A stretch of 64,000 bases of DNA, taken from assembly GCA_020849475.1 (NCBI GenBank), contig JADLGE010000023.1, forward strand, positions 8,153 through 72,152, read 5' to 3'. The translations under genes were made by a program, and so were the position numbers. Positions 4,600 to 62,296 of the stretch are shown one piece after another. The notes below the pieces were generated by a model. That model had not been told where the DNA came from. It saw only the letters and a program-made list of their open reading frames with translations, and searched no databases. Numbering within the stretch: position 1 is the first letter of the stretch; each line of letters starts with the position of its first letter. This DNA is from Gammaproteobacteria bacterium (lineage in GTDB: Bacteria; Pseudomonadota; Gammaproteobacteria; Ga0077536).

Positions 4600-6147
4600 A
4601 TGACTATCCGTCACTCATCTCATCACCGTCACGCCGGCACACCTTCATCACGCAATACTTTGGCCGCGGCACTGCTGCTGGCGCTCGCGCCCTCTGCCCA
4701 TGCCGTCAACGGCGTCGACCCGCAGGAAAACGTCGCGCTGCAATGGAATGATGCCGCGCTGGAAGCGATACGCATCACCCACCCCGGCCCGCCGATGGTG
4801 GCGCGCATGCTGGCGGTGTTGAACACCTGCGCGTTCGACAGTTGGGCGGCGTTCGACGCGCAGGCGCGCGGCACACGCTACGGCCGCCAGTTGAAGGCGC
4901 CGCAGAACCTGCGCACTGATGCCGCCAAGCGCGAAGCGGTCGCCTATGGCGCCTATCGCGCGGCGCTCGATCTGTTTCCGCAGCCCGAACAGCAGGCCTA
5001 TTTCCGGGCCCTGCTCGGCGAGCAGGGCTACAACCCGGACTACGCATTGCGCAATGTCACCACCGCGGCCGGCCTTGGCAACAAGGCCTGCCAGGCGGTG
5101 CTCGAATTCCGACACCGCGACAAGTCCAACCAGCGCGGCGAAATGAACGGCGGCGCGCCCTACTCCGACTGGACCGGTTATCAACCGGTCAATACGCCCG
5201 ATCAGATCAATGACCCGAATCGCTGGCAGCCCTTGCGCATCGCCGACGGCCACGGCGGCACGGTAATGCAGAAATTCATCGCGCCCCATTGGGGCCGTGT
5301 CACGCCGTTCGCATTGCGCGACTGGAACAAGGACGTCATCAAGCCGGTGCGGCGCCTGGTCAAGGACACCACCGGCCACGTCGGTCCGGTCAAGGTCGAT
5401 GACCCGGCGTACAAGGAGCAGGCCGACCAGGTCATCGCCTACAGCGCCAGCCTGGTCGACACCCAGAAAGTGATTGCCGAATTCTGGGCCGACGGACCGG
5501 CCTCGGAACTGCCGCCCGGTCACTGGAATTTATTTGCGCAGGAAGTCTCGGCGCGCGACACCCATACGCTCGATGCCGACGTGAAGATGCTGTTCGCGGT
5601 GTCCAACACCGTGTTCGACACCAGTATCGCCATCTGGGGCGCGAAGGTGTTGTTCGATTCCGTGCGTCCCGTCACCGCCATTCACTATCTCTACAACGGT
5701 CAGAGCATCCATGCGTGGGCCGGCCCCGGTCAGGGCACGCAGACGATCTCGGGTGAGAATTGGCAGCCCTACCAGGCCAGCACCGTGGTCACGCCGCCGT
5801 TTTCGGAATACCCGTCCGGACACAGCGCGTTCTCGTCGGCGGGCGCCGAGATCCTGAAGCGCTTCACCGGCAGTGATGTATTTGGCGGCGGGGTCACGCT
5901 GCCGGCCGGCAATTCGCGCGTCGAACCCGGCCAGGTGCCGGCCTTCGATCTCAGTTTGAGTTGGGCGACTTTCAGCGACGCCGCCGATGAAGCCGGCATC
6001 TCGCGGCGCTATGGCGGCATCCACTTTGTTGACGGCGATCTCGATTCACGTCTGATGGGTCGCCGTGTCGCGGCGCTCGACTGGCCGGCCATCCAGTACT
6101 ACTTCGGTGCATCGCCGGGCGGGCATGACGGTCATCACCACGACTGA
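4600..6147 (+). CDS. Secreted PAP2-superfamily protein, vanadium-dependent haloperoxidase-like
   Basis: Start refined to MTIRHSS with signal peptide AAALLLALAPSAHA. PAP2/vanadate-site motifs PSGHSAFS and SRRYGGIHFVDGD. Length of about 515 aa fits bacterial vanadium haloperoxidases rather than small acid phosphatases. Confidence 0.65.
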   Translation: MTIRHSSHHRHAGTPSSRNTLAAALLLALAPSAHAVNGVDPQENVALQWNDAALEAIRITHPGPPMVARMLAVLNTCAFDSWAAFDAQARGTRYGRQLKAPQNLRTDAAKREAVAYGAYRAALDLFPQPEQQAYFRALLGEQGYNPDYALRNVTTAAGLGNKACQAVLEFRHRDKSNQRGEMNGGAPYSDWTGYQPVNTPDQINDPNRWQPLRIADGHGGTVMQKFIAPHWGRVTPFALRDWNKDVIKPVRRLVKDTTGHVGPVKVDDPAYKEQADQVIAYSASLVDTQKVIAEFWADGPASELPPGHWNLFAQEVSARDTHTLDADVKMLFAVSNTVFDTSIAIWGAKVLFDSVRPVTAIHYLYNGQSIHAWAGPGQGTQTISGENWQPYQASTVVTPPFSEYPSGHSAFSSAGAEILKRFTGSDVFGGGVTLPAGNSRVEPGQVPAFDLSLSWATFSDAADEAGISRRYGGIHFVDGDLDSRLMGRRVAALDWPAIQYYFGASPGGHDGHHHD

Positions 6148-9875: not shown

Positions 9876-11600
9876 TCAGGCTACTTGCTGCTGCGCCCAC
9901 CAGCGGCGCACCGAGGCATTGACCTCGGCGGCGTGGAAACGCGCGACCTTGTTGCTCGGTTCGAGCGCTTCTTCGTAGAAGAAAGTCGGCAGTTCGTCGT
10001 CGGCTTCGGTGAAACCCGCGGCCTTGTTGAACTCCGCTTCCATGCGCAGCGTCTGACGACCGAGGGTACGGAACCAGTCGGTGCTGAACGCCGTGCCGCA
10101 GGCCGCGTTGATGGAGTCCACCACCATCTCGACATTGGCATTCGTCACTGAGCGGCCGAACACGCACAGACCGAGGGAATCGGCGGTCGCGCACAGGGTC
10201 TGCATTTCCATGCTGACATCGACCAGCTCATCGACGTTCTTGCCGCTGCATTCGAACTTCGGTGCGTTGCCGGTGGTGTGATCGGCGCCCTGCGCGGTGA
10301 CCATCATGGAGATGCCAGTCACTTCAATCACGCGCGGATCGTAGGCGCTGATGCCCTGCTTCTTGATCACCGGGCAGCGCGCCACCCGGTAATGCGCACC
10401 CACAGCCGCCGTGCCCTGAGCCCACAGGCGGCCGTCGGCACTGCCCGCACGCAGTTCTTCCATCACGCGCGTCAGGAAGGCCACATCGCCGAAAGGCGCG
10501 AGGCCGGCATCGAGCAACACGCCCATCATGGCGCCGGTCTCGATGGTGTCGATGCCGAGATCGTTGGCGTGCCAGTTCAAACGCGCGAGGTCGTCCGGGT
10601 CGGTGAGGCCGCAGTTGGTGCCCATGAGGCCCAGGGTCTCGTACTCCACCGGTGAGACTATCTCTTTTCCGTCAGCGTCGGCGTAGACATTGCTGCATTC
10701 GATGAGGCAGCCCGGCATGCAGGCATGGGAGGTCTCGCCACCGCGCTCGAGATTCTGCGCGCGAATGAAATCGCCGCCCATCTTCAACACGCCGTTGGCG
10801 ATATCCACCTGTCGGCCAGACGTGAAATTGTTCACCGGCAGGCCGCCGACGTGGTTGGTGTAGTCGGCCATCATGGCCGTGCCGTAATCCTTCAGCACGT
10901 TGATGGCCTCATCGGCGCGCAGCTTGGCGCCGTAGTCCTTGATGTTGCCCAGCACCTTCTTACGATCGTGAAAGGTCGGCATGCGATCGAGATCGATGAC
11001 GATGGCCTTCAGTTTCTTCACGCCCATCACCGCGCCCACGCCACCGCGCGCGGCGAGACGCGCCGGGCGCTTGTCGGTGTCGCTCATGGAGATGCCGGCC
11101 AGCAGGCCGCCATATTCACCGACAGGCCCGCAAATCGCGACGCTGACTTTCTGTCCGTAGACCTCGTGCAGCATGGCGGCCGTTTCAAACGTGCCGCGGC
11201 CGACATAGGGCGTGCCACTGGTGAATTCCACCGTGCCGTCCTTCTTGAGATACATGACGGTCCAGTCGTCGCAGCCGCCGTAGAGCGTGAAGCCGGCGAT
11301 GGAGAGCTGGCCCATGGCGAGCCCGAAAGAACCACCGGCATTGGCTTCCTTGATGCCGCCGGTCAGGGGACTCTTGCAGCCGACGCTGGTGCGGTTGGCA
11401 TTGGACCAGTTGCTGCCGGCGAAGGGCCCGGCGGAAAAAATCAGCGGATTGTCGGTGCTGAGCGGGTCGACCGTGGCGGCGCCGAGTTCGAGCAGGGTCT
11501 TGGCGATGAAATAGCGCCCGGCGTGGGCCACCTGCTCGCCGCTGAACTGCTCCTCGCGCACGCTGCGCTGGGTCAGACTGATGTGTAGGTATTTGCGCAC
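9876..11600 (-). CDS. aor: Aldehyde:ferredoxin oxidoreductase (tungsten/molybdopterin AOR family)
   Basis: 574 aa. AOR N-terminal domain (HISLTQRSVREE...GRYFIAKTLLELGA...NPLIFSAGPFAGSN...TSVGCKSPLTGG) and AOR C-terminal segments (EYETLGLMGTNCGLTDPDDLARLNWHANDLGIDTIETG). Confidence 0.85.
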   Translation of the reverse strand: MRKYLHISLTQRSVREEQFSGEQVAHAGRYFIAKTLLELGAATVDPLSTDNPLIFSAGPFAGSNWSNANRTSVGCKSPLTGGIKEANAGGSFGLAMGQLSIAGFTLYGGCDDWTVMYLKKDGTVEFTSGTPYVGRGTFETAAMLHEVYGQKVSVAICGPVGEYGGLLAGISMSDTDKRPARLAARGGVGAVMGVKKLKAIVIDLDRMPTFHDRKKVLGNIKDYGAKLRADEAINVLKDYGTAMMADYTNHVGGLPVNNFTSGRQVDIANGVLKMGGDFIRAQNLERGGETSHACMPGCLIECSNVYADADGKEIVSPVEYETLGLMGTNCGLTDPDDLARLNWHANDLGIDTIETGAMMGVLLDAGLAPFGDVAFLTRVMEELRAGSADGRLWAQGTAAVGAHYRVARCPVIKKQGISAYDPRVIEVTGISMMVTAQGADHTTGNAPKFECSGKNVDELVDVSMEMQTLCATADSLGLCVFGRSVTNANVEMVVDSINAACGTAFSTDWFRTLGRQTLRMEAEFNKAAGFTEADDELPTFFYEEALEPSNKVARFHAAEVNASVRRWWAQQQVA

Positions 11601-20548: not shown

Positions 20549-22894
20549 TCACACCGCGATGCGCTGCATCTCCCCCGTCGCCCGGTGCAAATCCTCGAAC
20601 AGCTCCGCGAGTGGCACCGGCTTGCCGATGCCATAGCCCTGCAGGTAATCGATGCCCAAGCGCGTCAGCACTTCGGCCTGCTGTGGCCCTTCGACGAATT
20701 CGGCGACGGTGGTCTTGTCCATGATGCGCGCGACCTCGGCAATCGAGCGCACCATCGCTTCGTCGAGTCGGTCGAGGGCGATGTTGCGCACGAAGATGCC
20801 ATCTATCTTGACCACGTCCACCGGCAAAGCTTTCAAGTAGGCAAACGACGACAGGCCGCTGCCGAAATCATCCAGCGCGAAACGGAAGCCGAGCTGCTTG
20901 AGACCGTTGATGAAGGACTGCGCGGTGTTGATGCTGGCGATGGCAGCGGTCTCGGTGATCTCGAAACAGAACTTCGCGGGCGGCAGATGATGCTTGCAAA
21001 ACTGCTGTTCGATGAAGCTCTGCAACTCCTGGTCTGCGAGTGACTGGCCGGAAATGTTGATGGAGCACGATTCAATCAAGGCCAGGCAATCGCGATGGGC
21101 GGCGAACCATTCGCAGGCGTGACGAATCACCCAGCGGTCGATACGCGGCGCGAGGCCGAAGCGCTCGGCCGCCGGCAGGAACAGGCCGGGCGAGATCATC
21201 GCGCCACGGTCGTCACGCATGCGCACCAGGATCTCGAGATGCGTCGACGGCGCCTCGGGGCGGCTGCGGGTGGCGCGTATCGGCTGCGCGTGCAGTTCGA
21301 AGCGGTCGTTTTCAAGCGCGCGGTTGATGACCGCCACCGAATCGACCTGCTGGCGATGGCGATTCAACTCGGCGTCGTCGGGGTCGAACTGGTAGACGCG
21401 CCCGCGGCCCATTTCCTTGGCCGCGTAGCACGCGGCATCGGCCGCCTTCATCACGCTCGCGGCGCTGGAATCAGGCGACAGCAGCGCCACCAGGCCGATG
21501 CTCACGCCGGCGTTGAAGAACTTGTCTTCCCAGGCGAAGCGATGCGCTTCGATGGCCTTGCACAGCTTGTCGGCGATGGCGCTGGCCTGGGCGCGCGTGC
21601 AGTGCTCGAGCAGGATCGCAAACTCATCACCGCCGAGTCGCGCCACCGCGTCGTGTTTGCGCACATGTTCGCGCAACAGCGCCGCGACCTCGCGCAGCAT
21701 GGCATCGCCCGCTTCATGGCCGCAGGCGTCATTGATGACCTTGAAGCTGTCGAGATCGAGATACAGCACCGCGTGCTGGGTGCTGTCGATGCGTATCGAC
21801 TCCAGCGCGCGCTTCAAGCGGGTTTCAAATTCGTGGCGATTCAGAAGCTCGGTCAGTTCATCGTGGGTTGCCTGGTAGGCCAAGCGGTCGGCCATGATGC
21901 GCGTGGTGGTGACGTCCTGAATCTGTACGATGGCGCGCACCCCGCCCTCGGTCGAACGCGGAATCGGCGAACCCGACACCATCACCCACAGCGGCGCGCC
22001 GTGGCTCGATGACTGGCGAGTCTCCAGGCAGAACTCGGTGATGCGTCCATCCAGCAAGGCGCTGAAGCGCTCCATCAGGCGCGCGCTGTCGACCGCGTCG
22101 GCGAGCGCCCAGAACGGCCGGTTTTTCCAATAGTCGGCGCCGGTCGCGTAGATGCCTTCGGTGACGCGGTTGGCGTGCACCACCGCGCCGTCGGCGTCGA
22201 TGAGCAGCATGCCGATGGGGGCGTTGTGGAACGCACTGGCGAAACGCGCCTCGGTCTGCTGCAGCGCCGAGGCCAGCTCCGCGGAACGATTGAAATGCCG
22301 GCTGTAATGGCGACCGGCGGACAACAGTGCCACACCGAACAACACCGCCATCAGTGCCAGCGTGCGAAACGCCGCGTTGTCATGCAGGGCGCACCACAAG
22401 GTCACGGGGATCAGCATCAAAGGTACGTACAGCCGGTAGCTGTTCAGCACCGGCGACAGATGCACGATGCCGCCGGCGCACAGGCCGGCCAGCACCAGGA
22501 TGGCGAGAAACTGATGTTCGAACGGCACGCCCGTCATCAACAGCAGTACGCCGATGCCCCAGGTCAGCCCGGTCAAGGCCACCAGCGCGCTGAACTGCTG
22601 CTCGGCCTGCGTCACCGGCAGGCGACTGGGGCCGGCCAGATAGCGCGCGCGCTGCTGCATGCGCAGCAGGCACAAGGCGCCGAGCCCGAGATACCAGCCG
22701 CCGAGCACGCCGTGATTGCCATAGGGCCACCACAGGCACAGCAGCAAGGTCGCGAGCGCGAGGTTACAGATGAATCCGAGCTGCGCCTGTTGGTGCACAT
22801 AGCCCAGGCGCAATTCACGCAAAGAGGTCTGCGCGGCGTCGCTGGGCACGTATTCAAGGGCCTGCGATGGATGGGTGGCGGCGGCCGAAAGCAT
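20549..22894 (-). CDS. Membrane-anchored sensory diguanylate cyclase/phosphodiesterase (multi-TM N-terminus, PAS, GGDEF, EAL)
   Basis: About 8 hydrophobic helices at the N-terminus, a PAS region, GGDEF motif RLGGDEFAIL, and EAL-domain motifs (CFEITETAAI, ALDDFGSGLSSFAYLK). Start is uncertain: Met-53 of the track ORF is used here. Confidence 0.8.
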   Translation of the reverse strand: MLSAAATHPSQALEYVPSDAAQTSLRELRLGYVHQQAQLGFICNLALATLLLCLWWPYGNHGVLGGWYLGLGALCLLRMQQRARYLAGPSRLPVTQAEQQFSALVALTGLTWGIGVLLLMTGVPFEHQFLAILVLAGLCAGGIVHLSPVLNSYRLYVPLMLIPVTLWCALHDNAAFRTLALMAVLFGVALLSAGRHYSRHFNRSAELASALQQTEARFASAFHNAPIGMLLIDADGAVVHANRVTEGIYATGADYWKNRPFWALADAVDSARLMERFSALLDGRITEFCLETRQSSSHGAPLWVMVSGSPIPRSTEGGVRAIVQIQDVTTTRIMADRLAYQATHDELTELLNRHEFETRLKRALESIRIDSTQHAVLYLDLDSFKVINDACGHEAGDAMLREVAALLREHVRKHDAVARLGGDEFAILLEHCTRAQASAIADKLCKAIEAHRFAWEDKFFNAGVSIGLVALLSPDSSAASVMKAADAACYAAKEMGRGRVYQFDPDDAELNRHRQQVDSVAVINRALENDRFELHAQPIRATRSRPEAPSTHLEILVRMRDDRGAMISPGLFLPAAERFGLAPRIDRWVIRHACEWFAAHRDCLALIESCSINISGQSLADQELQSFIEQQFCKHHLPPAKFCFEITETAAIASINTAQSFINGLKQLGFRFALDDFGSGLSSFAYLKALPVDVVKIDGIFVRNIALDRLDEAMVRSIAEVARIMDKTTVAEFVEGPQQAEVLTRLGIDYLQGYGIGKPVPLAELFEDLHRATGEMQRIAV

Positions 22895-23263
22895 AGTCGT
22901 GAAGTCCGTCAGGCTGCGCCAAGGCGCAAGGTTCGAGTTCGTGGGCATGGGGACGAGGCTTGCGCGACACCGCGCAGGGGCGGCCTCATGACGGCTGCGC
23001 GGAGGATGGGGCGCGGCACAATCAAGCGCAGGGGCAGGCGCACATGCCAAGCGCGCGCAGCGGTCATGTCACCGCTACCGGCAGTCCAGGCACGCAAACG
23101 CCGCTGAGACATAAGCCCTCCGATCGGGCGCCGTCACTGTCTCGCGTCCACGGTGGATCTGCGCTCCGCGGCGACTGACGCTCAGGGGTTAGCGACCCGA
23201 GGCTGGCATGCCTTTAATTTCGCGCGCGACACAGCATCGCGAATGGCCACGTTACAATGGCCC

Positions 23264-46649: not shown

Positions 46650-46697
46650 TTGTGCGCGCCTTCGATTTCTCTCAACGCCAATACAGGACTGTTCACC

Positions 46698-48428
<1,731 letters not shown>

Positions 48429-50272: not shown

Positions 50273-51193
50273 TCATCCGCGCCACAGCGCCCATGCCAAC
50301 ACCAGAGGCGTCAACAAACTCGCCGCGACATTGCTGGCTAGATAAGGTGTCAATGCCGCACCGGCCGCATGACGCGCGAGACCGATGACGGTCGGCAGCA
50401 TCGCGCTGAGCGGCAGCAAGCTCAGCCACGCCAGCGGCGGAAACACGCCGCTGGTGACCGCCATCACCACCACGCCCGCCGTCGCCACGGCCAACGATGC
50501 GAACACCCGGCGTGCACGTCGACGCCCATAGGCGATGGCGAGATGTCGCCTTCCGACCGCGCGGTCGGCCTCGATATCGGGAAACTGGTTGGCGAGCAGC
50601 AGGCTCGAACCCAACAGGCCCGGCACCAGCGCGGCGGTAATCGCCAGCAGCGACAGCCTTTCGTTCAACACCGCCACTACGCCCAACACCTGCAATGACC
50701 CGACGCCGAGGCCGGGCGCGACCAGGCATAACAATGGGTGACGATTGATCCATGGTGTGTAGGCGAGCACCAGCGCCACACCCAGCGCACCGATGGGCAA
50801 CAGCAGCGGTCCGTGGCGCGCGACGCACCAGGCGCCGATGACAACAGTCAGCGACAGCATCATGAGCGCGCTGCCGCGCACCGCCCGCATCGCTTCGGGG
50901 TCGTCCTGCAAGGCGCCGCTGCCGCCGCTGAATGGCGTGCGCGTGGTGTGAGCGTCGAGTCCGCTGCGTGCGTCCTCGTATTCATTGAAGAGATTGACGC
51001 TGGCATGGGCGGCGAGCGCGCCGACCAACACCAGCGTCACATCGAGCCACGCGAGCGTCGCGCCACTGCGCCATGCCACCGCGATGCCGAGCAGCACGCA
51101 CACCACGCTCATCAACAGGAAAGGCGGACGCGCCGCACGCCACAGCGTCAGCGCGCGTGTGCCAGTATCCGTGCGCAGCGCGCCACTGATCAT
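50273..51193 (-). CDS. UbiA-family aromatic prenyltransferase (MenA/UbiA-like)
   Basis: 306 aa, polytopic. Asp-rich motifs NEYEDARSGLD (NxxxDxxxD) and DIEADR. Confidence 0.8.
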   Translation of the reverse strand: MISGALRTDTGTRALTLWRAARPPFLLMSVVCVLLGIAVAWRSGATLAWLDVTLVLVGALAAHASVNLFNEYEDARSGLDAHTTRTPFSGGSGALQDDPEAMRAVRGSALMMLSLTVVIGAWCVARHGPLLLPIGALGVALVLAYTPWINRHPLLCLVAPGLGVGSLQVLGVVAVLNERLSLLAITAALVPGLLGSSLLLANQFPDIEADRAVGRRHLAIAYGRRRARRVFASLAVATAGVVVMAVTSGVFPPLAWLSLLPLSAMLPTVIGLARHAAGAALTPYLASNVAASLLTPLVLAWALWRG

Positions 51194-51199
51194 GGGGTT

Positions 51200-52624
51200 T
51201 CAGTCCAGCTGCGGTCGGCGCGCCGCCCACGGTTGCGCGCTTTCGAGTTGCGCGGCGAGCCGGAACAGCGTCGCTTCGTCGGCGTAACGGCCCATCAACT
51301 GCATGCCGATGGGCAGCCCGGCGTCGTTCCAGCACAGCGGCAGGGAAATGGCCGGCTGGCCGGTGACGTTGGCAATCGCCGTAAAGCGCGGGAAGCGTTC
51401 CATGCGTTCGGTAGCCTGATGCGGCGCCTTGCGCTCGAAATCGAAATAACCGAGCGGCACCGGCGGCTCCGGCACGGTCGGCGTCAACCACACGTCGTAG
51501 CGCGAGAAGAACGGCGCGATGGCGCGTGCGAAGCGATGCATTTCATTGACCGCCATGAGAAAGTCCGACGGCCGCGTCTCGCCGTCAATTTCGAACATCT
51601 TCCAGGTGTGTCTCTCGAAATGCGCGGGCGTCGGTGTGCGGCCGAGACGCACGCTCCAGTCACGAATCATCCACGCCACCATCGCCAGCCAGATGGTGGT
51701 GAAGAAGTCATTGAAGCGCGAACCGTCAACCGCGGGCATGGCTTCTTCGACATGATGCCCCAGGCTTTCACACAGCGCCGCGATGTCGCGCACGCCGCGC
51801 TGACAATCGGCATGCACCGGCGTCGGTGTGAGCGGCTGGGTGCTGAAGGCAATGCGCAAACGGCCCGGGTCGACGCCCACTTCCGAGGCGAAGGAGCGCT
51901 GGGGCGGCGGCGGGAAATACGGCGCGCCGAGGTCGGGCCCGGCGGTGACGTCCAGCATCAGCGCATTGTCGAGCACGCTGCGCGTGACGACGTGCTCCGA
52001 CAGCAAACCGGCCGCACCGACATCGCCGTAATCCGGGCCGAGCGGATTGCGGCCGCGCGTGGCCTTCAAACCCACCAAGCCGCATACCGACGCCGGCAGG
52101 CGCGTCGAACCACCGCCGTCATTGGCATGCGCCACCGCCACCATGCCGGCCGCCACCGCCGCGCCAGCGCCACCGGACGAACCGCCCGGCGAACGCGTGA
52201 CATCCCAGGGATTGCGCGTCGGCCCGTAGAGTTCAGGTTCGGTGGTGGGCTTGGAAGCGAACTCCGGCGAATTGGTCTTACCGACCACGATGAAGCCGGC
52301 GCGCTGATAGCGTGCCACCAGCTCGCTGTCGCGCGGCGAGATATAACCCTGCAAAAAACGCGAGCCTTCGGTGAGCGGCGCGCCAGCGTATTCGGCGCAC
52401 ATGTCCTTCAACAGCAGCGGCACGCCAGCATAGGGCTCGTCGCCCTTCAATTCCTTCACCGCGCGGCGCGCGATGTCGTACATCGGCAGCACCACCGCGT
52501 TGAGCCGCGGGTTGTATTTCTCGATGGCGGCGATCGCCGCTTCAACCATTTCCAGCGGCGACACTTCGCCAGCACGGATGAGACGGGCCTGCTCGGCAAC
52601 GCCGAGACGCATGAGTTCGAGCAT
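51200..52624 (-). CDS. Amidase signature (AS) family amidase
   Basis: Start refined to [11 protein letters not shown] motif [33 protein letters not shown] with a Ser-cisSer-Lys triad context. Confidence 0.85.
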
Positions 52625-52900
52625 GGGGCACTCCTCGCTGCATGGTGGGTGCATCAAGTGTAACCGCTGGCCGCAGCAAGAGACCCCGGCGTATGTCGAG
52701 CCCTAGCGGGCACGCTAGCGGTCGATTAAGAAGCGTGCGCTAGTGTGCTGTCCCGTGATGAACTTCGATAATTCGCGCGGCTACCGGGCCGCCAGGCAAG
52801 GCGCGCGGAGGAGTAATAGCGGGGCTATTGCGACGACAAGCAACGCCGCATGGCGGTTCGAGAGCAAACGAATTACGAAGATTCATTGCGGGACAGCGCA

Positions 52901-54781
52901 CTAGAGCGTCTGCACGAATGCCGCGACGTCGGCGACATCCTGCGCGCTGAGTGTGGACGGAAACAGTCGCGGCATCTTGGCCGACGGATTTTCTATCCAG
53001 CGCACGGTCGCCGCCTGATCGAGACGCTGCCTGAGGCCTGCCAGGCGCGGCCCTGCACCGCCTTCGCCCTGCGCGCCGTGACACGCGGCGCAGTTGTGTC
53101 CGTATACCTCACGACCGCGTGAGCCATCGCCCGCCGTGACGGCGGCGGTCATGACGGAGGTTGGCGTGGCTGCCGCGTCCGACACGGCCTTGCCGTCACT
53201 CGCCGCCCCCTCTGGCAAGGCATAAATCACCACCGAAGGCTTGCCGTTTTCACCGAAGGACAGGCGCGAGACATTGCCCGAATCGATGGCGACATACTGC
53301 CGGCCGCCCAAGGCGTAGGTGATGATGCCGCCCGCCACCGCACCGCCGGTCGCGACCTTGTGCAGCACCGCGCCGGTTTTCGAATCGAGCGCGATGAAGT
53401 TGCCGCTCATGTCGCCGCCGAAGGTCACACCGCCGGCGGTGGGCGTGATGCCTGCCACCACCGGCGCCTCGGCGTGATACTGCCAGCGCAGCGCGCCGCT
53501 GTCGGGGTCGAGCGCGCTGATCCAGCCGCTGCGTTTGTCGTCCCAGATCCAGCTGCCTGCCACCAGGAATTTGCCGGGCTGAAAGTCGACCTTGTCGGAC
53601 TTGATGACCGCGCACCAGTCGACCGCACCCACCACCAGCTGGCGGGTCTTCTCGTCATAGGCCGGACCATTCCATTCCACGCCGCCTACCGGCCCTGGGC
53701 AGGAATGCACGCCGTCGGCGGTCGGCGCCTTGGTCGGCTTCTCGATGGTGGTGACGGCGGTTTTAAAAACGCGCTTGCGGGTTTCGCGATTGACGGCGTA
53801 CAGATGGCCATCCTTGCTGCCGAAGGCGACCATGGCATCGCCCTTGCTGTTCCAGTACAGCATCGGCGCCGCACCGAGATCGAGATCCAGGCCGTCGTTC
53901 GATTCCATCTGGTGCCACCACTTCAGGGCCCCGGTCTGCGCGTCCAATACCACCATGCTGTTGGTAAACAGGTTTTCGCCCGGACGATGACCGGGCACGA
54001 AATCCGGCGCCGGATTGCCTACCGGCACGAACACTTCGCCGGCCGCCATGTCGAGCGTGTAAGTGGTCCAGCTACCACCACCGCCGTAGCGCGCGCTGTC
54101 GGCCACCTTCCAGCTTTCGGCGCCGACTTCCTTGCCGCGCGGGATGGTATTGAAGCGCCACAGCTGCTGGCCGTTGTCCTGGTCATAGGCCATCACACGG
54201 CCGCGTATGCCCCAGTCACTGCCGGCCGCGCCGACAATCAAAGTGCCCTGCCACACCGCCGGCACCGAGCTGAAGAACTCGCCCTGCGCCGGGTCGCCGA
54301 CCTGCTGCAGCCACAAGGTCCTGCCGCTGGCGGCGTCTATCGCCATGAGGCGCGCGTCGGGCGTACCGCGAAACAGTTTGCCGTTGGCATAGGCCACGCC
54401 GCGGTTGATCTGGAATACGTCCTGTTGCTGCGGACGATAGACGTTGCGCCAGCGTAGCGCACAGCTGCGCGCGTCGATGGCAAGGGTGTCGTGGGCGTTG
54501 GTCAGGTAGAGCGTGCCGTCGAGTTGCACGAGGCCGGCCTGGAAGGTGCCCGAGTCATCGACCTTGATGCGGCAGACCTCCTGCAACTGCTTGACGTTGG
54601 CTGTGTTGATCTGATCGAGCTGCGAATAGCGCTGACCGTTGGCGGTGTTGTTATAAGCCGGCCAGTCGGTGTCGGCGAGGCGGCCTGCCTGTGCGGTGGC
54701 GGCCGCGAATGCCGCGATCATGCAAGCCCCGCACATCATGCGGCCACGTATCCCCACCATCGGCTTTACCGCTGCCCTCAT
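52901..54781 (-). CDS. Quinohemoprotein PQQ-dependent alcohol dehydrogenase (type II, C-terminal cytochrome c domain)
   Basis: 626 aa. Signal peptide. Eight-bladed PQQ propeller with W-repeat segments. C-terminal CAACHG heme-binding motif. Confidence 0.85.
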   Translation of the reverse strand: MRAAVKPMVGIRGRMMCGACMIAAFAAATAQAGRLADTDWPAYNNTANGQRYSQLDQINTANVKQLQEVCRIKVDDSGTFQAGLVQLDGTLYLTNAHDTLAIDARSCALRWRNVYRPQQQDVFQINRGVAYANGKLFRGTPDARLMAIDAASGRTLWLQQVGDPAQGEFFSSVPAVWQGTLIVGAAGSDWGIRGRVMAYDQDNGQQLWRFNTIPRGKEVGAESWKVADSARYGGGGSWTTYTLDMAAGEVFVPVGNPAPDFVPGHRPGENLFTNSMVVLDAQTGALKWWHQMESNDGLDLDLGAAPMLYWNSKGDAMVAFGSKDGHLYAVNRETRKRVFKTAVTTIEKPTKAPTADGVHSCPGPVGGVEWNGPAYDEKTRQLVVGAVDWCAVIKSDKVDFQPGKFLVAGSWIWDDKRSGWISALDPDSGALRWQYHAEAPVVAGITPTAGGVTFGGDMSGNFIALDSKTGAVLHKVATGGAVAGGIITYALGGRQYVAIDSGNVSRLSFGENGKPSVVIYALPEGAASDGKAVSDAAATPTSVMTAAVTAGDGSRGREVYGHNCAACHGAQGEGGAGPRLAGLRQRLDQAATVRWIENPSAKMPRLFPSTLSAQDVADVAAFVQTL

Positions 54782-54966
54782 CGTGCTCCCCTTGTATGCC
54801 CAGACCGCAAGGCGCGGCCGAGCATGAAACTAACACAGAGCGCCAAGTGCTCACTGCCCCCCCAAGTGTGTAGGCAGCGCGTAGCCCAGGCGATGGGAGT
54901 CAGTCGCCAAGACGTCGCCGTGCTCGCCGCTATTCGTTCTTCAAGGACCGCAAAGCTCGCTGCGCC

Positions 54967-56859
54967 TTGCGCACGCTTGACAGTCATCAAGCATACGATG
55001 CGCCGCATTGCGCTAACGTACTTCAGAGCATGCTGGTGCCTTTGCTGGCGCGCGAAACGCGGCTCGAAGTCCAGGAAGTCCGCGAGGGTGAACGGCCGCG
55101 CGCCAACGTCGTCGACATCACGCCCGCGCGCTGGAATATCACCCTGCGTGATCGCCGCCTGCATTTGACCGAAGCCACCGCGCCCGGCACACCCAAGCCA
55201 TCGGTCGAGCAATTCTTCGCCTCGCTTGCCGAAGATCTCGGCGAAGCGGCAATGGCGGTGGTGTTGTCCGACACCGGTTCGGACGGCGCACGCGGCATGC
55301 GTGCGATCCGTGCGGCCGGCGGCATCACCTTTGCGCAGGACGAGAGCAGCGCCAAGCACAACGGCATGCCGCGCGCGGCGGTCGAGTCCGGCTGCGTTGA
55401 TTACGTGCTGCCACCCGACGCCATCGCGCGCCATCGCGCGCCATCTCGACGCCGTGTCGCGCCTCTGCGCCGGCGCCGAGAGTGAATTGAATGGCGTCGG
55501 CCAATGAAGAACTGCAGTCGACGAATGAAGAGTTGACCACGGTCAATGAGGAACTCGAGACCAACACCCACGAGCTCATTCGGCTCAACAGTGACCTGCG
55601 CAACGTCAAGGACAGCTTGAACCATCCCTTGGTCGTGCTCGACGAATGTCTGCGCGTGACGCTCTACAACCCGCCGGCCATGCAGCTGTTCGATCTCACG
55701 CCGGCGACGGTGGGCGAGAGTCTCTTTTCCATTCCGTCGACGCTGGATCTCGGCGACCTGCGTATCCGCCTGGCGGGCGTGATCGCCAGTGGCGTCACCT
55801 TCACCCGGCAGTTCACCGGCGCGGTCTGCCACTTGTTGCAGGCCGACCCCTATATCGACAAAGGCAATCATCGCAAGGGTGTGGTGCTGACCTTCGTCGA
55901 CAACACTGCCATCAAGAACGCCGCGCTGCGCCTCGAAGGCTTCGCCCGCCAACTGGAAGACTCGGAACGCTTCAGCCGCTCGACCATCGACGCGCTGGCC
56001 ATGCACATCTGCGTGGTCGACGCCAGCGGTGTCATTGTCACCGTCAATCGTGCCTGGGAAGCGTTCATCCACCACAATGCTGGCCTCGTCCGGACCTGCG
56101 GCATGGGCGCCAATTACATCGAGGTCTGCGAACGTTCACGTCACGCCGGTGATGTCTTGGCCGACCGCTTCGTGCGTGGCCTGCGCGCGGTGCTCGCTGG
56201 CGAGCAGGACGGCTTCACCATGGAATATCCCTGCCATGCCCCCGACCTGCAGCGTTGGTTCGAGGTCAACTGTTCACGCTTCCAGGGCGCGGGTCCGACT
56301 TACGTGGTGATCGCCCATGAAGACTTCACCCACCGCGTCATCGCCGAAGCGCGCGATCGCGGTCAATTTCTCGGCCGTGCAGTTTCGTCAGCGCAATGTC
56401 ATCACCAAGGTCGCGCAGGCCTTGTCCGACAGCGGCCTCGCGCCCGCGCTGCTCGAAATCGAACTGACCGAGAGCGCCATCATGTGCAGCGGCAGCGACA
56501 CCACGGAGATCCTCAACAACCCGCGGCGGCTCGGCATCCGCCTCGCCATCGATGACTTCGGCACCGGCTATTCGAGCTTGCAGCACCTGCGCCGCTTCCC
56601 GATAGACAAACTCAAGATTGACCGCAGCTTGATTGCCGATCTGCCCAACGACGACAACGCCTCCACCATCGCGCGCGCCATGATCATGCGCGGGCGCAGC
56701 CTCGGGCTGGAGGTGGTGGCGGAAGGCGTCGAGAACCAATCGCAGTGGGATTTTCTGCGCAATCTCGAATGCAGTTCCTTCCAGGACTACTACCAGACGC
56801 CGGCGGTGGATGCAGAGAGCTTCGAAGCCTTGTTGCGCACGCAGCCACCGCGCGGCTGA
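54967..56859 (+). pseudogene. Decayed multidomain signalling gene (CheB-methylesterase fragment / coiled-coil + two PAS / EAL C-terminal half) in three different frames
   Basis: ORF 54967-55485 matches only the C-terminal half of a CheB methylesterase domain (VVLSDTGSDGARGMRAIRAAGGITFAQDESSAKHNGMPRAAVESGCVDYVLP). ORF 55491-56555 starts with the CheB/CheR-fusion coiled coil EELQSTNEELTTVNEELE and has two PAS domains. ORF 56317-56859 is the second half of an EAL domain (IAVNFSAVQFRQ...ELTESAIM...DDFGTGYSSL). The CheR and GGDEF domains and the first half of EAL are absent. Frames are 1, 0 and 1. Confidence 0.6.
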
Positions 56860-56919
56860 CGGCGCGCACGCTTCGCAAAGCCGCTGCGCAGTGCGCAAGC
56901 GAGTGCAGTAAGGAAGACC

Positions 56920-57303
56920 TCAGCAGGGCGCCGCACCACGCGCAGGCGGCCCGGCCCGCAGTAAGGCCGCCTGCTCGTCGGCTGTGAACACGCGCGAACG
57001 GATCAGGAAGCGCACGCCGCGCGGCGATTCCAGCGAAAAGCCGCTGCCACGACCCGCCACCACGTCCACCGTCAAGTGAGTGTGCTGCCAGACTTCGAAT
57101 TGCGGGCCGCTGATATAGAACGGGCAATCCGCCACCATGCCGAGCCACACATCGCGTTCACCGACGCGAAACTCGGCGCGCGGATAGCACATAGGCGCGC
57201 TGCCGTCGCAACAGCCGCCCGACTGATGAAACATCAGCGGCCCGTGGGCCGCTTTCAGTTCCGCTATCAAGGCAATCGCTGCGTCGGTCGCCTCGACGCG
57301 CAT
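56920..57303 (-). CDS. DUF779 family protein (aldehyde-dehydrogenase-associated)
   Basis: Start refined to MRVEATDAAIALI. Conserved HQSGGCCDGS motif. Confidence 0.75.
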   Translation of the reverse strand: MRVEATDAAIALIAELKAAHGPLMFHQSGGCCDGSAPMCYPRAEFRVGERDVWLGMVADCPFYISGPQFEVWQHTHLTVDVVAGRGSGFSLESPRGVRFLIRSRVFTADEQAALLRAGPPARGAAPC

Positions 57304-57355
57304 GACCTCGCCGCAACCAGGTGCGCCGGCCTTGAACTGCATGGCCGTGTTGCGC

Positions 57356-58894
<1,539 letters not shown>

Positions 58895-58953
58895 CTCGAC
58901 CTCCAATGATGTTCTGCAATGCGACGCCGCCGGGCAGGGCCGGACGGCGGAAT

Positions 58954-59244
58954 TCAATGCACCGATGGACTGCCGCCCGCACAGCGGCTGCCCGCCAGGG
59001 CCGCCGCCTCGCTGAGCGCCGACAGTCGCTCGACCCAAATCGCATGGGCAGTGGCGAGACTCGCGAGCACCGCCGGCTGACGCGGCAGGTCGGGGTGGTC
59101 GCGCAACTGCCGCAACAAGCTCAGCAGGGTGCGTATATGCGCCTCTTCGCTGCTGTTCGCGCACTGCGCCATGAGGCGGATGACCGCCGCCATGAGCGTC
59201 GCGGTCTCGGGTCCGTCGTTGTCTCCTCGCGGCTCGGGCGGCAT
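58954..59244 (-). CDS. Hypothetical small protein (doubtful)
   Basis: 96-aa ORF between the two aldehyde dehydrogenase genes. No recognisable motif. Confidence 0.2.
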
Positions 59245-59422
59245 AATGGCCTCGGTAATTTATGCACCCGAAAACATAAATTTTCTCGGGTTATTGGTGA
59301 TATTAGCCAGCCTGCCCGTCGACGAAATATGTATCACCGTGCCGCTAGAGATCGACCGCGTGCCCAAGCACATTGGCGGTACGCACACGGCTTTGCGCCG
59401 TTCACATTCCAAGGAGTCAGTA

Positions 59423-60853
59423 ATGCAGAGTTGTCTTAAGTTCTACATCAACGGTGCATGGGTCGAGCCGAGCGCCCCGCAGCCGTTAGACGTGATCAAT
59501 CCCGCCACCGAACAAGTCGTCGGCCAGATCATGCTGGGCAATGCCCAGGACGTGAACAAGGCCGTGGCCGCCGCCAAGGCCGCTTTTCCCGCCTTTGCCC
59601 GCACCAGCGTCGACGAGCGCGTCGCCCTGCTGGAAAAGATTGGCGCCGTCTACAAGGAGCGCTATGCCGAAATGGTGGAGACCATTTCCAGCGAAATGGG
59701 CGCGCCCATCTGGCTGTGCAAGGCCGCGCAGGCCGCCATGGGCCCGGCCCATCTCAATACCGCCATCGAAGTGCTGAAGAACTACGTGTTCGAAGAAAAG
59801 CGCGGCAACATCACGCTGCGTCGCGAGCCGGTAGGCGTGTGCGGATTCATCACGCCGTGGAACTGGCCCATCAACCAGATTGCCTGCAAGGTGCTGCCCG
59901 CCCTCGCCGCCGGTTGCACGATGGTGCTCAAGCCTTCGGAAGTCGCACCGCTGAACGCAGCCATCTTCGCCGAAGTGCTGCATGCGGCCGGCGTACCCGC
60001 CGGTGTGTTCAATCTCGTCAACGGTGACGGCCCGGGCGTCGGCACGCCGCTGTCCTCGCATCCCGATGTCGACATGGTGTCGTTCACCGGCTCGACCCGC
60101 GCCGGCATCCTGGTGGCCAAGGCCGCCGCCGATACCGTCAAGCGCGTCGCGCAGGAACTCGGTGGCAAGTCGGCCAACATCATTCTCGAAGACGCCGACC
60201 TCAAGACCGCGGTCGCCGGCGGCGTGCAGTCGATGATGATGAACTCCGGCCAGTCCTGTAATGCGCCGAGCCGCATGCTGGTGCCGGCCAAGTTGCACGA
60301 CCAGGCGGTCGCGATCGCCAAGGAAGCGGTGGCCAACGTCAATGTGGGCGATCCGAAGATGAAGGATTCGACCATTGGCCCTGTGGTCAGCAAGGTCCAG
60401 TTCGACAAGATTCAAGCCCTCATCAACAAGGGCATCGCCGAAGGCGCGACGCTGGTCGCTGGTGGCCCCGGACTGCCGGAAGGCATCACTGCCGGTTACT
60501 TCGTCAAGCCCACCATCTTCGCCAACGTCAATAACGACATGACCATCGCGCGCGAAGAGATCTTCGGGCCGGTGCTGTGCATGATGCCCTACAAGGACGA
60601 TGCCGAAGCCATCGCGATTGCCAACGACACTGTGTACGGCCTGTCGGGCTATGTATCCGGTGGCGACCCCAAGCGCATCGCCGAAGTCGCCAACCAGCTG
60701 CGCTGCGGCAACGTGCATGTCAACGGCGCGGGCCTCGACTTCCACGCACCTTTCGGCGGCTACAAGCAGTCGGGCAACGGGCGTGAGTGGGGCGAATTCG
60801 GCTTCGAGGAGTTCCTCGAAGTCAAAGCCGTGATGAATACCGCCGCGGCTTAA
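59423..60853 (+). CDS. NAD(P)-dependent aldehyde dehydrogenase
   Basis: Start refined to MQSCLKFYING with AAGGAG 6 nt upstream. ELGGKSANII and NSGQSCNAPSR catalytic motifs. Followed by a clean rho-independent terminator. Confidence 0.9.
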   Translation: MQSCLKFYINGAWVEPSAPQPLDVINPATEQVVGQIMLGNAQDVNKAVAAAKAAFPAFARTSVDERVALLEKIGAVYKERYAEMVETISSEMGAPIWLCKAAQAAMGPAHLNTAIEVLKNYVFEEKRGNITLRREPVGVCGFITPWNWPINQIACKVLPALAAGCTMVLKPSEVAPLNAAIFAEVLHAAGVPAGVFNLVNGDGPGVGTPLSSHPDVDMVSFTGSTRAGILVAKAAADTVKRVAQELGGKSANIILEDADLKTAVAGGVQSMMMNSGQSCNAPSRMLVPAKLHDQAVAIAKEAVANVNVGDPKMKDSTIGPVVSKVQFDKIQALINKGIAEGATLVAGGPGLPEGITAGYFVKPTIFANVNNDMTIAREEIFGPVLCMMPYKDDAEAIAIANDTVYGLSGYVSGGDPKRIAEVANQLRCGNVHVNGAGLDFHAPFGGYKQSGNGREWGEFGFEEFLEVKAVMNTAAA

Positions 60854-60871
60854 GGCCCAGCGTGTCTTGCA

Positions 60872-60908
60872 AGGCGTCGTCGCGACAGCGGCGACGCCTT
60901 TTTTATTG
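60872..60908 (+). terminator. Rho-independent terminator after the aldehyde dehydrogenase gene
   Basis: AAGGCGTCGTCGC-GACA-GCGGCGACGCCTT stem-loop followed by TTTTTATT. Confidence 0.75.
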
Positions 60909-61021
60909 CCTGCATTAATGGTTATGCTCAGCGCGCCGCGCGGCCGTCGTCGCGCTGGCTCATCCATCAGTGTCGGTAATGAGCGCGGTGCCGGGCATCG
61001 CGACACCCGCGGGAGCCGTCT

Positions 61022-62296
61022 GTGCAGAACATCGATGCCGACCGGCTCTACGCGCGGGTCACCTGGCGGCTGGTGCCGTTCCTGTTCCTTTGCTACATCT
61101 GCGCCTATCTCGACCGCGTCAACGTCGGCTTTGCCAAATTACAGATGCAAAGCCAGCTCGGCTTCAGCGAAACCGTCTACGGCCTCGGCGCCGGCATCTT
61201 TTTCCTGGGCTATTTTCTGTTCGAGATCCCGAGCAACCTCGGCCTGCATCGTTACGGCGCGCGCCGCACCATCGCACGCATCATGATTGCCTGGGGCCTG
61301 TTGTCGGCGGCCACCCTGTGGGTCACCACGCCCACGCAGTTCTACGTCGTGCGCTTTCTGCTCGGCGCCGCCGAGGCCGGCTTCTTCCCCGGCATCATCC
61401 TGTATCTCACCTACTGGTTCCCGGCCGCGCGCCGTGGCCAGGTGACGGCGCTGTTCGCCACCGCCGTGCCGATAGCGACCGTGATTGGCGCACCGCTGTC
61501 GGGCTATGTGTTGCAACACTTCGACGGCGTGCATGGCTGGCACGGCTGGCAGTGGCTGTTCCTGCTCGAAGCCTTGCCGTCCATCGTGTGCGGATGCGCG
61601 GCGTGGTGGTGTCTCGCCGACCAGAGTCGTGACGCGCGCTGGCTGACGGCCGAGGAACAAGCGTTCATCGCCGCCGAGGTGCAACGCGACAACGCCGCCA
61701 TTGCGCACATGAGCGTTGCCCAGGGCCTGCGCATGCCGCAGGTCTGGGCGCTGGCCGCCATCTATTTCGCGTTCGTGATGGGCCTCTATGGACTCAATTT
61801 CTGGCTGCCGAGCATCGTCAAGGATCTGGGCTATGCGCAACCGCTCGACATCGGGCTGGTGTCCGCCATCCCTTTTGGCGCCGCCTGCGTGGCGATGCTG
61901 GTCATCGCGCGCCATGGCGACAGGCATGACGAACGGCGCTGGCATATCGTGATACCGGCCACCCTGGGCGGCCTGGGCCTGCTGGCCAGCGCCCTGCTCG
62001 CCACCACCCCGCACTGGGCGGTGGCGGCCCTCACCCTCGGCGCCTGCGGCGTCCTCGCGGCAATCGTGCAGACCTGGTCATTGGCGACCGCCATCGTCGG
62101 CGGCGGCGCGGCGGCATCGGGCATTGCCCTCATCAATTCCTTCGGCAACCTGTCGGGCTTCGTCGGGCCCTATGCCATCGGCTGGTTGAAGGACGCCACC
62201 GGCAGCACCGCGGCCGGTGTCACGATGCTCGCGATTTCGATGCTGGTCGGCGCCGCGCTGGTGCTGCGTGTCACGGCGCCCGATGAGCGGGGGTAA
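61022..62296 (+). CDS. MFS transporter (anion:cation symporter-like)
   Basis: GTG start. MFS signature GxLaDRxGxRR-like (GLHRYGARRT). 12 TM helices. Confidence 0.85.
   Translation: MQNIDADRLYARVTWRLVPFLFLCYICAYLDRVNVGFAKLQMQSQLGFSETVYGLGAGIFFLGYFLFEIPSNLGLHRYGARRTIARIMIAWGLLSAATLWVTTPTQFYVVRFLLGAAEAGFFPGIILYLTYWFPAARRGQVTALFATAVPIATVIGAPLSGYVLQHFDGVHGWHGWQWLFLLEALPSIVCGCAAWWCLADQSRDARWLTAEEQAFIAAEVQRDNAAIAHMSVAQGLRMPQVWALAAIYFAFVMGLYGLNFWLPSIVKDLGYAQPLDIGLVSAIPFGAACVAMLVIARHGDRHDERRWHIVIPATLGGLGLLASALLATTPHWAVAALTLGACGVLAAIVQTWSLATAIVGGGAAASGIALINSFGNLSGFVGPYAIGWLKDATGSTAAGVTMLAISMLVGAALVLRVTAPDERG

Follow-up and report, generated by a model that had tools for sequence, protein, structure and literature searches.

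The locus examined here raises the question of whether a large signalling gene has decayed among otherwise intact metabolic genes and, if so, whether that gene was the dedicated regulator of alcohol oxidation. The window (the whole stretch of 64,000 nucleotides that was analysed) itself derives from a metagenome-assembled genome of a gammaproteobacterium. The original prediction read three ORFs in it as the pieces of one multi-domain CheB/CheR-PAS-GGDEF-EAL gene broken by several lesions, and this reading holds, because all three fragments are collinear with P0273, an intact protein of 1,699 aa encoded at the locus L026 of a relative. We consider it very probable that positions 54964-56859 are a non-functional pseudogene remnant of a cytoplasmic signalling protein of about 1,700 residues, of which approximately 38% of the coding sequence is left. 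The predicted location between a PQQ dehydrogenase gene and the DUF779 and aldehyde dehydrogenase genes is likewise correct, with Pfam matches at both flanks. The features of the locus are as follows.

52901-54781, minus strand: PQQ beta-propeller dehydrogenase with a C-terminal cytochrome c domain (Pfam PQQ, 5.5e-68, and Cytochrome_CBB3)
54782-54963, no strand assigned: 5' scar, from the dehydrogenase start codon up to the first P0273-homologous residue
54964-56859, plus strand: remnant of the signalling gene, three collinear fragments A, B, and C
54964-55500, plus strand: fragment A, CheB methylesterase remnant and start of the post-CheB linker (P0273 residues 66 to ~250)
55419-55445, plus strand: 10-bp tandem duplication CGCCATCGCG, 2.7 copies (Tandem Repeats Finder, 100% match)
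55493-55500, plus strand: junction J2, breakpoint of a ~1.4-kb deletion (alignments to L026 2462-2600 and 3900-4060)
55491-56335, plus strand: fragment B, end of the NEELQS coiled coil, PAS_10, and PAS_4/PAS_7 (P0273 ~726-1006)
56331-56336, plus strand: junction J3, breakpoint of a ~1.55-kb deletion (alignments to L026 4776-4900 and 6330-6476)
56336-56859, plus strand: fragment C, EAL remnant with native C-terminus and stop codon (P0273 ~1524-1699)
56336-56555, plus strand: out-of-frame tail of ORF2, EAL-derived DNA in frame 0, Arg-rich, ~73 codons
56920-57342, minus strand: DUF779 gene (Pfam DUF779, 1.2e-47; 82% aa identity to L026)
57356-58894, minus strand: ExaC-type acetaldehyde dehydrogenase (Pfam Aldedh, 1.9e-157; 96.5% aa identity to L026)

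The genes on either side of the remnant are intact. The PQQ-type dehydrogenase gene is divergently oriented relative to the remnant, and its product is 91.6% identical to the L026 copy and scores below the cut-off of TIGR03075 (315.7 vs 480). The DUF779 and ExaC-type genes are convergent with the remnant, and the aldehyde dehydrogenase passes the NCBIfam ExaC equivalog model NF050026 (929 bits, cut-off 900). No direct or inverted repeats of at least 9 nt that would bound the block were found at its flanks, there are no Rfam matches in 52000-62000, and a search of 54600-57100 for a sigma-70-like promoter found none, which is weak evidence on expression. The ORF list places three ORFs on the plus strand (54967-55485, 55491-56555, and 56317-56859), none of the fragments contains an internal stop codon, and three-frame translation puts the homologous stretches A, B, and C in coordinate frames 1, 0, and 1. 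The remnant thus has neither one continuous reading frame nor a start codon of its own, and the pieces were correctly described as out of frame as far as B is concerned, but A and C share a frame.

An intact counterpart of the gene was not among the most readily found homologues. A HMMER search against representatives of 50%-identity clusters yielded full-length homologues at only 44–57% identity (P0124 and P0126), which have the architecture CheB, CheR_N, CheR, coil, PAS_10, PAS_7/4, PAS/PAS_9, PAS_3, GGDEF, and EAL, and all three fragments match P0124 collinearly. P0273 sat inside a 50% cluster and surfaced in an alignment-profile search, the hits of which were re-ranked against the fragments. 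It is a single ORF, deposited as 'MAG: EAL domain-containing protein [Proteobacteria bacterium]' (GCA_016719885.1, contig JADJYF010000029.1), and its domain map reads CheB, CheR_N, CheR, NEELQS coil, PAS_10, PAS_4, LOV-like PAS, PAS_3, GGDEF, and EAL. Fragments A, B, and C match it in collinear order with 81%, 74%, and 77% aa identity (85%, 76%, and 82% at the nucleotide level). All 25 closest full-length relatives carry the complete architecture; scans of genome and metagenome contigs with the PAS fragment found no intact relative and only one further pseudogene copy.

The gene for P0273 lies at the syntenic position, in the order PQQ dehydrogenase (minus), intact gene (plus), SnoaL_2 (minus), DUF779 (minus), ExaC-type aldehyde dehydrogenase (minus), ALDH2, and MFS transporter (plus). 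The second aldehyde dehydrogenase and the MFS transporter of the window are 95–97% and 87% identical to their L026 counterparts, the flanking genes overall 82–97%. Five blocks of nucleotide homology connect the two loci.

L026 1-1295, window 53387-54681: 88% nt identity
L026 2090-2500, window 55023-55433: 85% nt identity
L026 3997-4832, window 55501-56336: 76% nt identity
L026 6405-6907, window 56349-56852: 82% nt identity
L026 7433-12782, window 56908-62263: 85% nt identity

The start of the dehydrogenase and the stop of DUF779 are 6,106 nt apart in L026, compared with 2,138 nt in the window. The fragments share the domain order, genomic position, and orientation of CheB/CheR fusion-PAS-GGDEF-EAL proteins (KEGG K13924-type) such as P0273, but the remnant keeps only the fraction of the gene given above, its frame is broken twice or three times, and it lacks the start codon, the CheB Ser motif, CheR, the third and fourth PAS domains, GGDEF, and the N-terminal third of EAL. 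The polarity of the deletions is based on the one intact syntenic orthologue together with the more distant full-length homologues. Several independent lesions rather than a single frameshift account for the three pieces, as had been predicted, and since the syntenic homologue is full length, the truncated form is not the conserved one.

At the 5' end, homology to P0273 begins in a tblastn search at residue 66 ('ALRT'), which corresponds to window position 54964; the stretch from there to about 55025 is strongly diverged with in-frame indels, and the weak homology in it extends upstream of the ORF start. The interval of L026 that is equivalent to the 5' scar consists of a 476-nt intergenic region and codons 1-65, which cover the start codon and the serine motif GASAGG. 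In pairwise alignments, the start codon and most of the L026-type 476-nt upstream region are missing from the window. Fragment A matches Pfam CheB_methylest (4e-38) over profile positions 33-172 of 174; the domain is therefore truncated, but what had been called half of it amounts to about 80%. CheB activity depends on a Ser-His-Asp triad. The His and Asp positions are retained in fragment A and the Ser motif is gone, and a family-specific CheB HMM found no match to the GASAGG serine segment (HMM positions 1-37) in any of the six frames, so the remnant lacks a complete CheB domain with its triad. Near the end of the CheB fragment, the reading frame is shifted by the 10-bp tandem duplication at 55419-55445. 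Deletions had been proposed as the mode of decay; they account for the missing domains, but this frameshift stems from a duplication. Since one repeat copy fewer is present in L026 and in about half of the population contigs (L004, L005, L006, L009, and L010, i.e., 5 of 11), the duplication is derived and recent.

The two internal breakpoints were mapped against L026 to 55493-55500 (J2) and 56331-56336 (J3). Missing at J2 are CheR_N, the CheR SAM-binding domain, a linker of about 200 aa, and most of the coiled coil (P0273 ~250 to ~725). Neither CheR_N nor CheR has a Pfam match in any fragment, and residues 253-504 of P0273 fall within this gap of about 1.4 kb. Fragment B follows with a 21-nt heptad repeat present three times (55496-55558), about 2.5 repeats of the coil being left, and with matches to PAS_10 (1.2e-10) and PAS_4 (1.1e-7). 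The order from coil to PAS_10 to a further PAS is thus preserved, though only two of the four PAS domains remain. Missing at J3, where there is possibly a GCGC microhomology of 3–5 nt, are the LOV-like PAS, PAS_3, GGDEF, and EAL profile positions 1-81 (P0273 ~1007 to ~1523). GGDEF is absent from the remnant, residues 1270-1426 of P0273 sitting in this gap of about 1.55 kb, and the EALVR motif (P0273 residue 1477) falls in the deleted part. CheR and GGDEF had been rightly named as lost, but the list was incomplete in that two PAS domains and most of the coil have gone as well. A junction between the second PAS and EAL had been placed at about 56345; it exists and maps about 10 nt further upstream, and the residues 'VIAEA' are an out-of-frame reading of EAL-derived DNA. 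Fragment C matches Pfam EAL (1.8e-41) over profile positions 82-233 of 236 and retains the N, ELTE, DDFGTG, KID, EGVE, and Q motifs, but the domain is incomplete, the Glu/Arg of the EAL motif being missing along with the initial third of the barrel. The N-terminal part of EAL is gone, as had been stated, but about 65% of the domain survives rather than half.

The alignments show that at least four separate lesions have hit the gene in the lineage of the window. A 5' truncation took away the part next to the promoter together with the start codon and some 65 codons at the beginning of the gene, among them those for GASAGG; an internal deletion of about 1.4 kb eliminated the whole CheR module; and with another of about 1.55 kb the gene lost GGDEF, two PAS domains, and the initial third of EAL. 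The lengths of the two internal deletions are not divisible by three, and the deletions would stem from illegitimate, microhomology-mediated recombination. The 10-bp tandem duplication is a later lesion that added one more frameshift and for which the population is still polymorphic. With the Ser segment, CheR, GGDEF, the EAL Glu/Arg, and a third of the barrel gone, no enzymatic activity is expected, and judging from the sequence none of the methylesterase, methyltransferase, diguanylate cyclase, and phosphodiesterase activities would survive.

Rates of change are consistent with a late loss of constraint. Pairwise dN/dS between the fragments and L026 is 0.17–0.26, and because these values are low most of the divergence accrued under purifying selection. 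In a relative-rate test with P0275 as the outgroup, the window has 55 lineage-specific aa changes vs 27 in L026 (chi-square 9.6), with the excess in each fragment (A 15/6, B 22/12, and C 18/9, window/L026). The adjacent dehydrogenase served as a control (outgroup L015) and has 13 unique changes in the window vs 20 in L026. Because the neighbouring gene shows no such excess, the acceleration is specific to the remnant gene. This pattern fits relaxed constraint across the later part of the branch in all three fragments including ORF2, and there may be residual selection on a fragment. Gene- and lineage-specific relaxation, to which the polymorphic 10-bp indel also attests, thus accompanies an intact orthologue at the syntenic position. 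Given that 74–81% identity is kept and that internal stops are absent, inactivation probably happened fairly recently along the branch that followed the divergence from the L026 lineage. Ordinary bacterial pseudogenes likewise have a syntenic intact orthologue, large out-of-frame deletions, frameshifts by tandem duplication, loss of catalytic motifs, a raised replacement rate, and disabling indels that are polymorphic; what stands out here is that four lesions lie in one gene, that SnoaL_2 is also absent, and that the flanking metabolic genes are intact.

A broken gene in a metagenome-assembled genome could be an artefact of assembly or binning, with collapsed or chimeric contigs, the more so as multi-domain signalling genes contain conserved motifs such as DDFGTGYSS at which de Bruijn graphs may break or be joined wrongly, and several Logan contigs stop at 56572, within that very motif. 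Against this, contigs L001-L010, drawn from runs SRR285202xx, DRR545331, and SRR8831201, are 99.4–100% identical to window 53840-57401 and all cross both internal junctions, and L023, an ENA activated-sludge contig (assembly UOWO01), is a further independent copy. The junctions therefore recur in 11 contigs, which other assemblers built from at least four further datasets, and across them the sole structural difference among the copies is the 10-bp indel. The copies also differ in the length of a poly-C tract inside the 5' scar (54857-54863; C7/C9) and by three SNPs, both of those within the fragments being non-synonymous (E>D at 55092 and R>L at 56690). Because identical junctions are found in independent assemblies, an assembly artefact is excluded as far as contigs allow, and we regard this explanation, which the original prediction had named as a caveat, as extremely improbable. 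It is just as hard to believe that the gene natively works in its short form in this lineage, as a split or minimised gene set. The fragments are indeed well conserved and free of stop codons, but the syntenic orthologue is one ORF of 1,699 aa, the CheB fragment has neither start nor nucleophile, profile positions 1-81 with the EAL motif are missing from the EAL fragment, the frames are incompatible, a frameshifting indel is polymorphic, and the relative-rate test indicates relaxed constraint.

The middle fragment deserves separate consideration, because ORF2 (coil, two PAS domains, and an out-of-frame tail) is predicted to be the sole piece that could still be translated, if it is transcribed. 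Fragment B forms the first 282 codons of this 354-aa ORF, which is identical to the NCBI protein MCC6707252.1 ('MAG: PAS domain-containing protein [Gammaproteobacteria bacterium]'). Its ATG is preceded by a weak GAGAG motif 8 nt upstream; relative to the upstream CheB-fragment ORF, this start overlaps by 17 nt without the duplication and lies beyond a 5-nt gap with it. ORF2 might persist as a sensor in its own right or as a dominant-negative partner to other CheB/CheR-PAS proteins: the homologous stretch is intact over 285 codons and starts with ATG, its dN/dS to L026 is 0.19, NCBI lists it as a protein, 16 Logan contigs encode it identically, and its coiled coil could still mediate dimerisation. 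We nevertheless think this very unlikely, since fragment B shares the lineage acceleration (22 vs 12 unique changes), EAL sequence read out of frame makes up the last ~73 codons, neither the native promoter nor the native start is left and no sigma-70-like promoter was detected, the apparently stand-alone PAS-only homologues that were checked are parts of genes that error-prone long-read assemblies had split, and 25 of the 25 closest full-length relatives have the complete architecture. Slimmer still is the chance that ORF2 is a small sensor or interference protein that would heterodimerise via its coil with other CheB/CheR-PAS proteins, the polymorphic 10-bp repeat acting as a switch, at the population level, on its translational coupling to the CheB-fragment ORF. 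ORF2 most likely has no role, and under the preferred reading of the locus as a pseudogene the three ORFs should become one annotated pseudogene, the middle piece of which is now deposited as a PAS domain-containing protein. The significance of the locus past annotation is little, this being ordinary gene decay in a known family; it is a clean, well-dated case of multi-hit decay in a large signalling gene beside intact metabolic genes, and both the intact orthologue at the syntenic site and the secondary frameshift that still segregates can serve for comparison.

What the gene did before its decay can be read from its domains alone, literature searches having found no functional or experimental study of the CheB/CheR-PAS-GGDEF-EAL architecture. 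The encoded protein is a c-di-GMP enzyme with PAS/LOV-like sensors and not a transcription factor. The LOV-like PAS motif GRNCRFLQ is present in P0124, P0272, P0276, and P0277, and P0273 has Leu in place of Cys; in P0273, moreover, GGDEF is degenerate (SGDEY) and the EAL motif intact. Because of the LOV-like PAS, the degenerate GGDEF, and the intact EAL motif, the domain content of the intact family points to a putative light/redox-type c-di-GMP phosphodiesterase rather than to an alcohol sensor.

The proposal that an ethanol-oxidation-like module has lost its dedicated sensor did not withstand the comparison of neighbourhoods. The regulators of PQQ-dependent ethanol oxidation in Pseudomonas (ErbR/AgmR, EraSR/ExaDE, and PedS/PedR) are response-regulator/histidine-kinase transcription systems. 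The window gene resembles their setting in that it adjoins PQQ-type and ExaC-type dehydrogenases, but unlike them it encodes a c-di-GMP enzyme, and clusters of this kind do not adjoin its more distant homologues. Only in the closest relative, L026, is the gene linked to the PQQ dehydrogenase and the aldehyde dehydrogenase, and six more distant intact homologues (P0275, P0276, P0277, P0295, P0124, and P0126) lie in unrelated neighbourhoods, so the linkage across diverged orthologues that marks a dedicated regulator is not seen. Among relatives of the dehydrogenase, L015 and L022 (84–90% aa identity) have a GST gene and a TetR regulator between the MFS transporter and the dehydrogenase, and L016, L018, and L021 have a LysR regulator and a 2OG oxygenase beside it. 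Because the linkage is confined to L026, these relatives carry TetR or LysR regulators, and the gene encodes a c-di-GMP enzyme, the loss of a dedicated sensor is unsupported, and the locus adds nothing new on the control of alcohol oxidation. In the genome of the window, no regulator-like gene now adjoins the dehydrogenase.

The comparison also bears on the origin of the surrounding block. The SnoaL_2 gene of L026 has no counterpart in the window, and its gain in L026 is as possible as its loss in the lineage of the window. A homology of the dehydrogenase promoter with L015 and L022 up to about 54880 was considered and dropped because two alignments disagree. That the 5' truncation marks a block boundary, as L015 and L022 had suggested, was rejected on the L026 evidence. 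Likewise, a 6-kb block comprising the pseudogene and the aldehyde dehydrogenases had been considered as an insertion unique to this lineage that replaced GST-TetR, and this was rejected because the block is also present in L026; the two cassettes are alternative contents between the MFS transporter and the dehydrogenase.

The interval between the MFS transporter gene and the PQQ-type dehydrogenase gene holds one of two alternative cassettes in related genomes, as follows (L026, from GCA_016719885.1, L015 and L022 are loci of relatives):

Window 54782-61022: cassette 1, with genes for ALDH2, ExaC, DUF779 and the CheB/CheR-PAS-GGDEF-EAL protein
L026 1339-11456: cassette 1, same gene set plus SnoaL_2
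L015 1-1480: cassette 2, with genes for a GST and a TetR regulator
L022 6225-7900: cassette 2, same gene set

Neither repeats nor mobile-element genes were found at the cassette boundaries. The SnoaL_2 gene lies at 6990-7358 of L026, between the signalling gene and the DUF779 gene, whereas neither a counterpart nor a remnant of it was found in the corresponding interval of the window (56860-56919), a difference that reflects either loss in the window lineage or gain in L026. L015 is otherwise collinear with the window, apart from the amidohydrolase and UbiA prenyltransferase genes (window 46650-48428 and 50273-51193), which are absent from L015.

The dehydrogenase encoded at 52901-54781 scores only 315.7 bits on TIGR03075, for which the cut-off is 480, and also matches the 'acido-empty-quinoprotein' model with a score below that model's cut-off. 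Both the substrate and the use of PQQ implied by the name 'PQQ alcohol dehydrogenase' are putative. Located 76-82 nt upstream of its start codon is a poly-C tract (54857-54863) that is C7 in the window but reads C9 in L002 and L004, Logan contigs independent of each other; the tract is either polymorphic in length or affected by a homopolymer error.

In the intact signalling family, the third PAS domain, which corresponds to residues 1017-1142 of the orthologue P0273 encoded in L026, is LOV-like and matches the NCBIfam YtvA family with 131 bits; the second internal deletion in the window takes in this domain. Several family members (P0124, P0272, P0276, and P0277) have the canonical GRNCRFLQ motif, but P0273 and P0126 have Leu in place of its Cys. 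The GGDEF motif of P0273 reads SGDEY, whereas its EAL motif is intact. A separate GGDEF-EAL gene is present in the window at 20549-23050 (minus strand), with a product 29% identical to P0273 across the GGDEF-EAL part (tblastn), so c-di-GMP enzymes other than the decayed one are still encoded in this genome.

Two genes in the comparison loci, the second ALDH gene of L026 (around 10187-10190) and the MFS gene of L022 (around 5461-5482), were each recovered as two tblastn segments in different frames, which are either frameshifts or assembly errors of those MAGs. CheB/CheR-PAS genes, along with a malate synthase gene, are broken into adjacent ORFs in L024 (ERZ25039499) and L025 (ERZ25039462), which are from long-read assemblies; gene splitting of this type makes short PAS-only proteins look more numerous in the protein database than they are.
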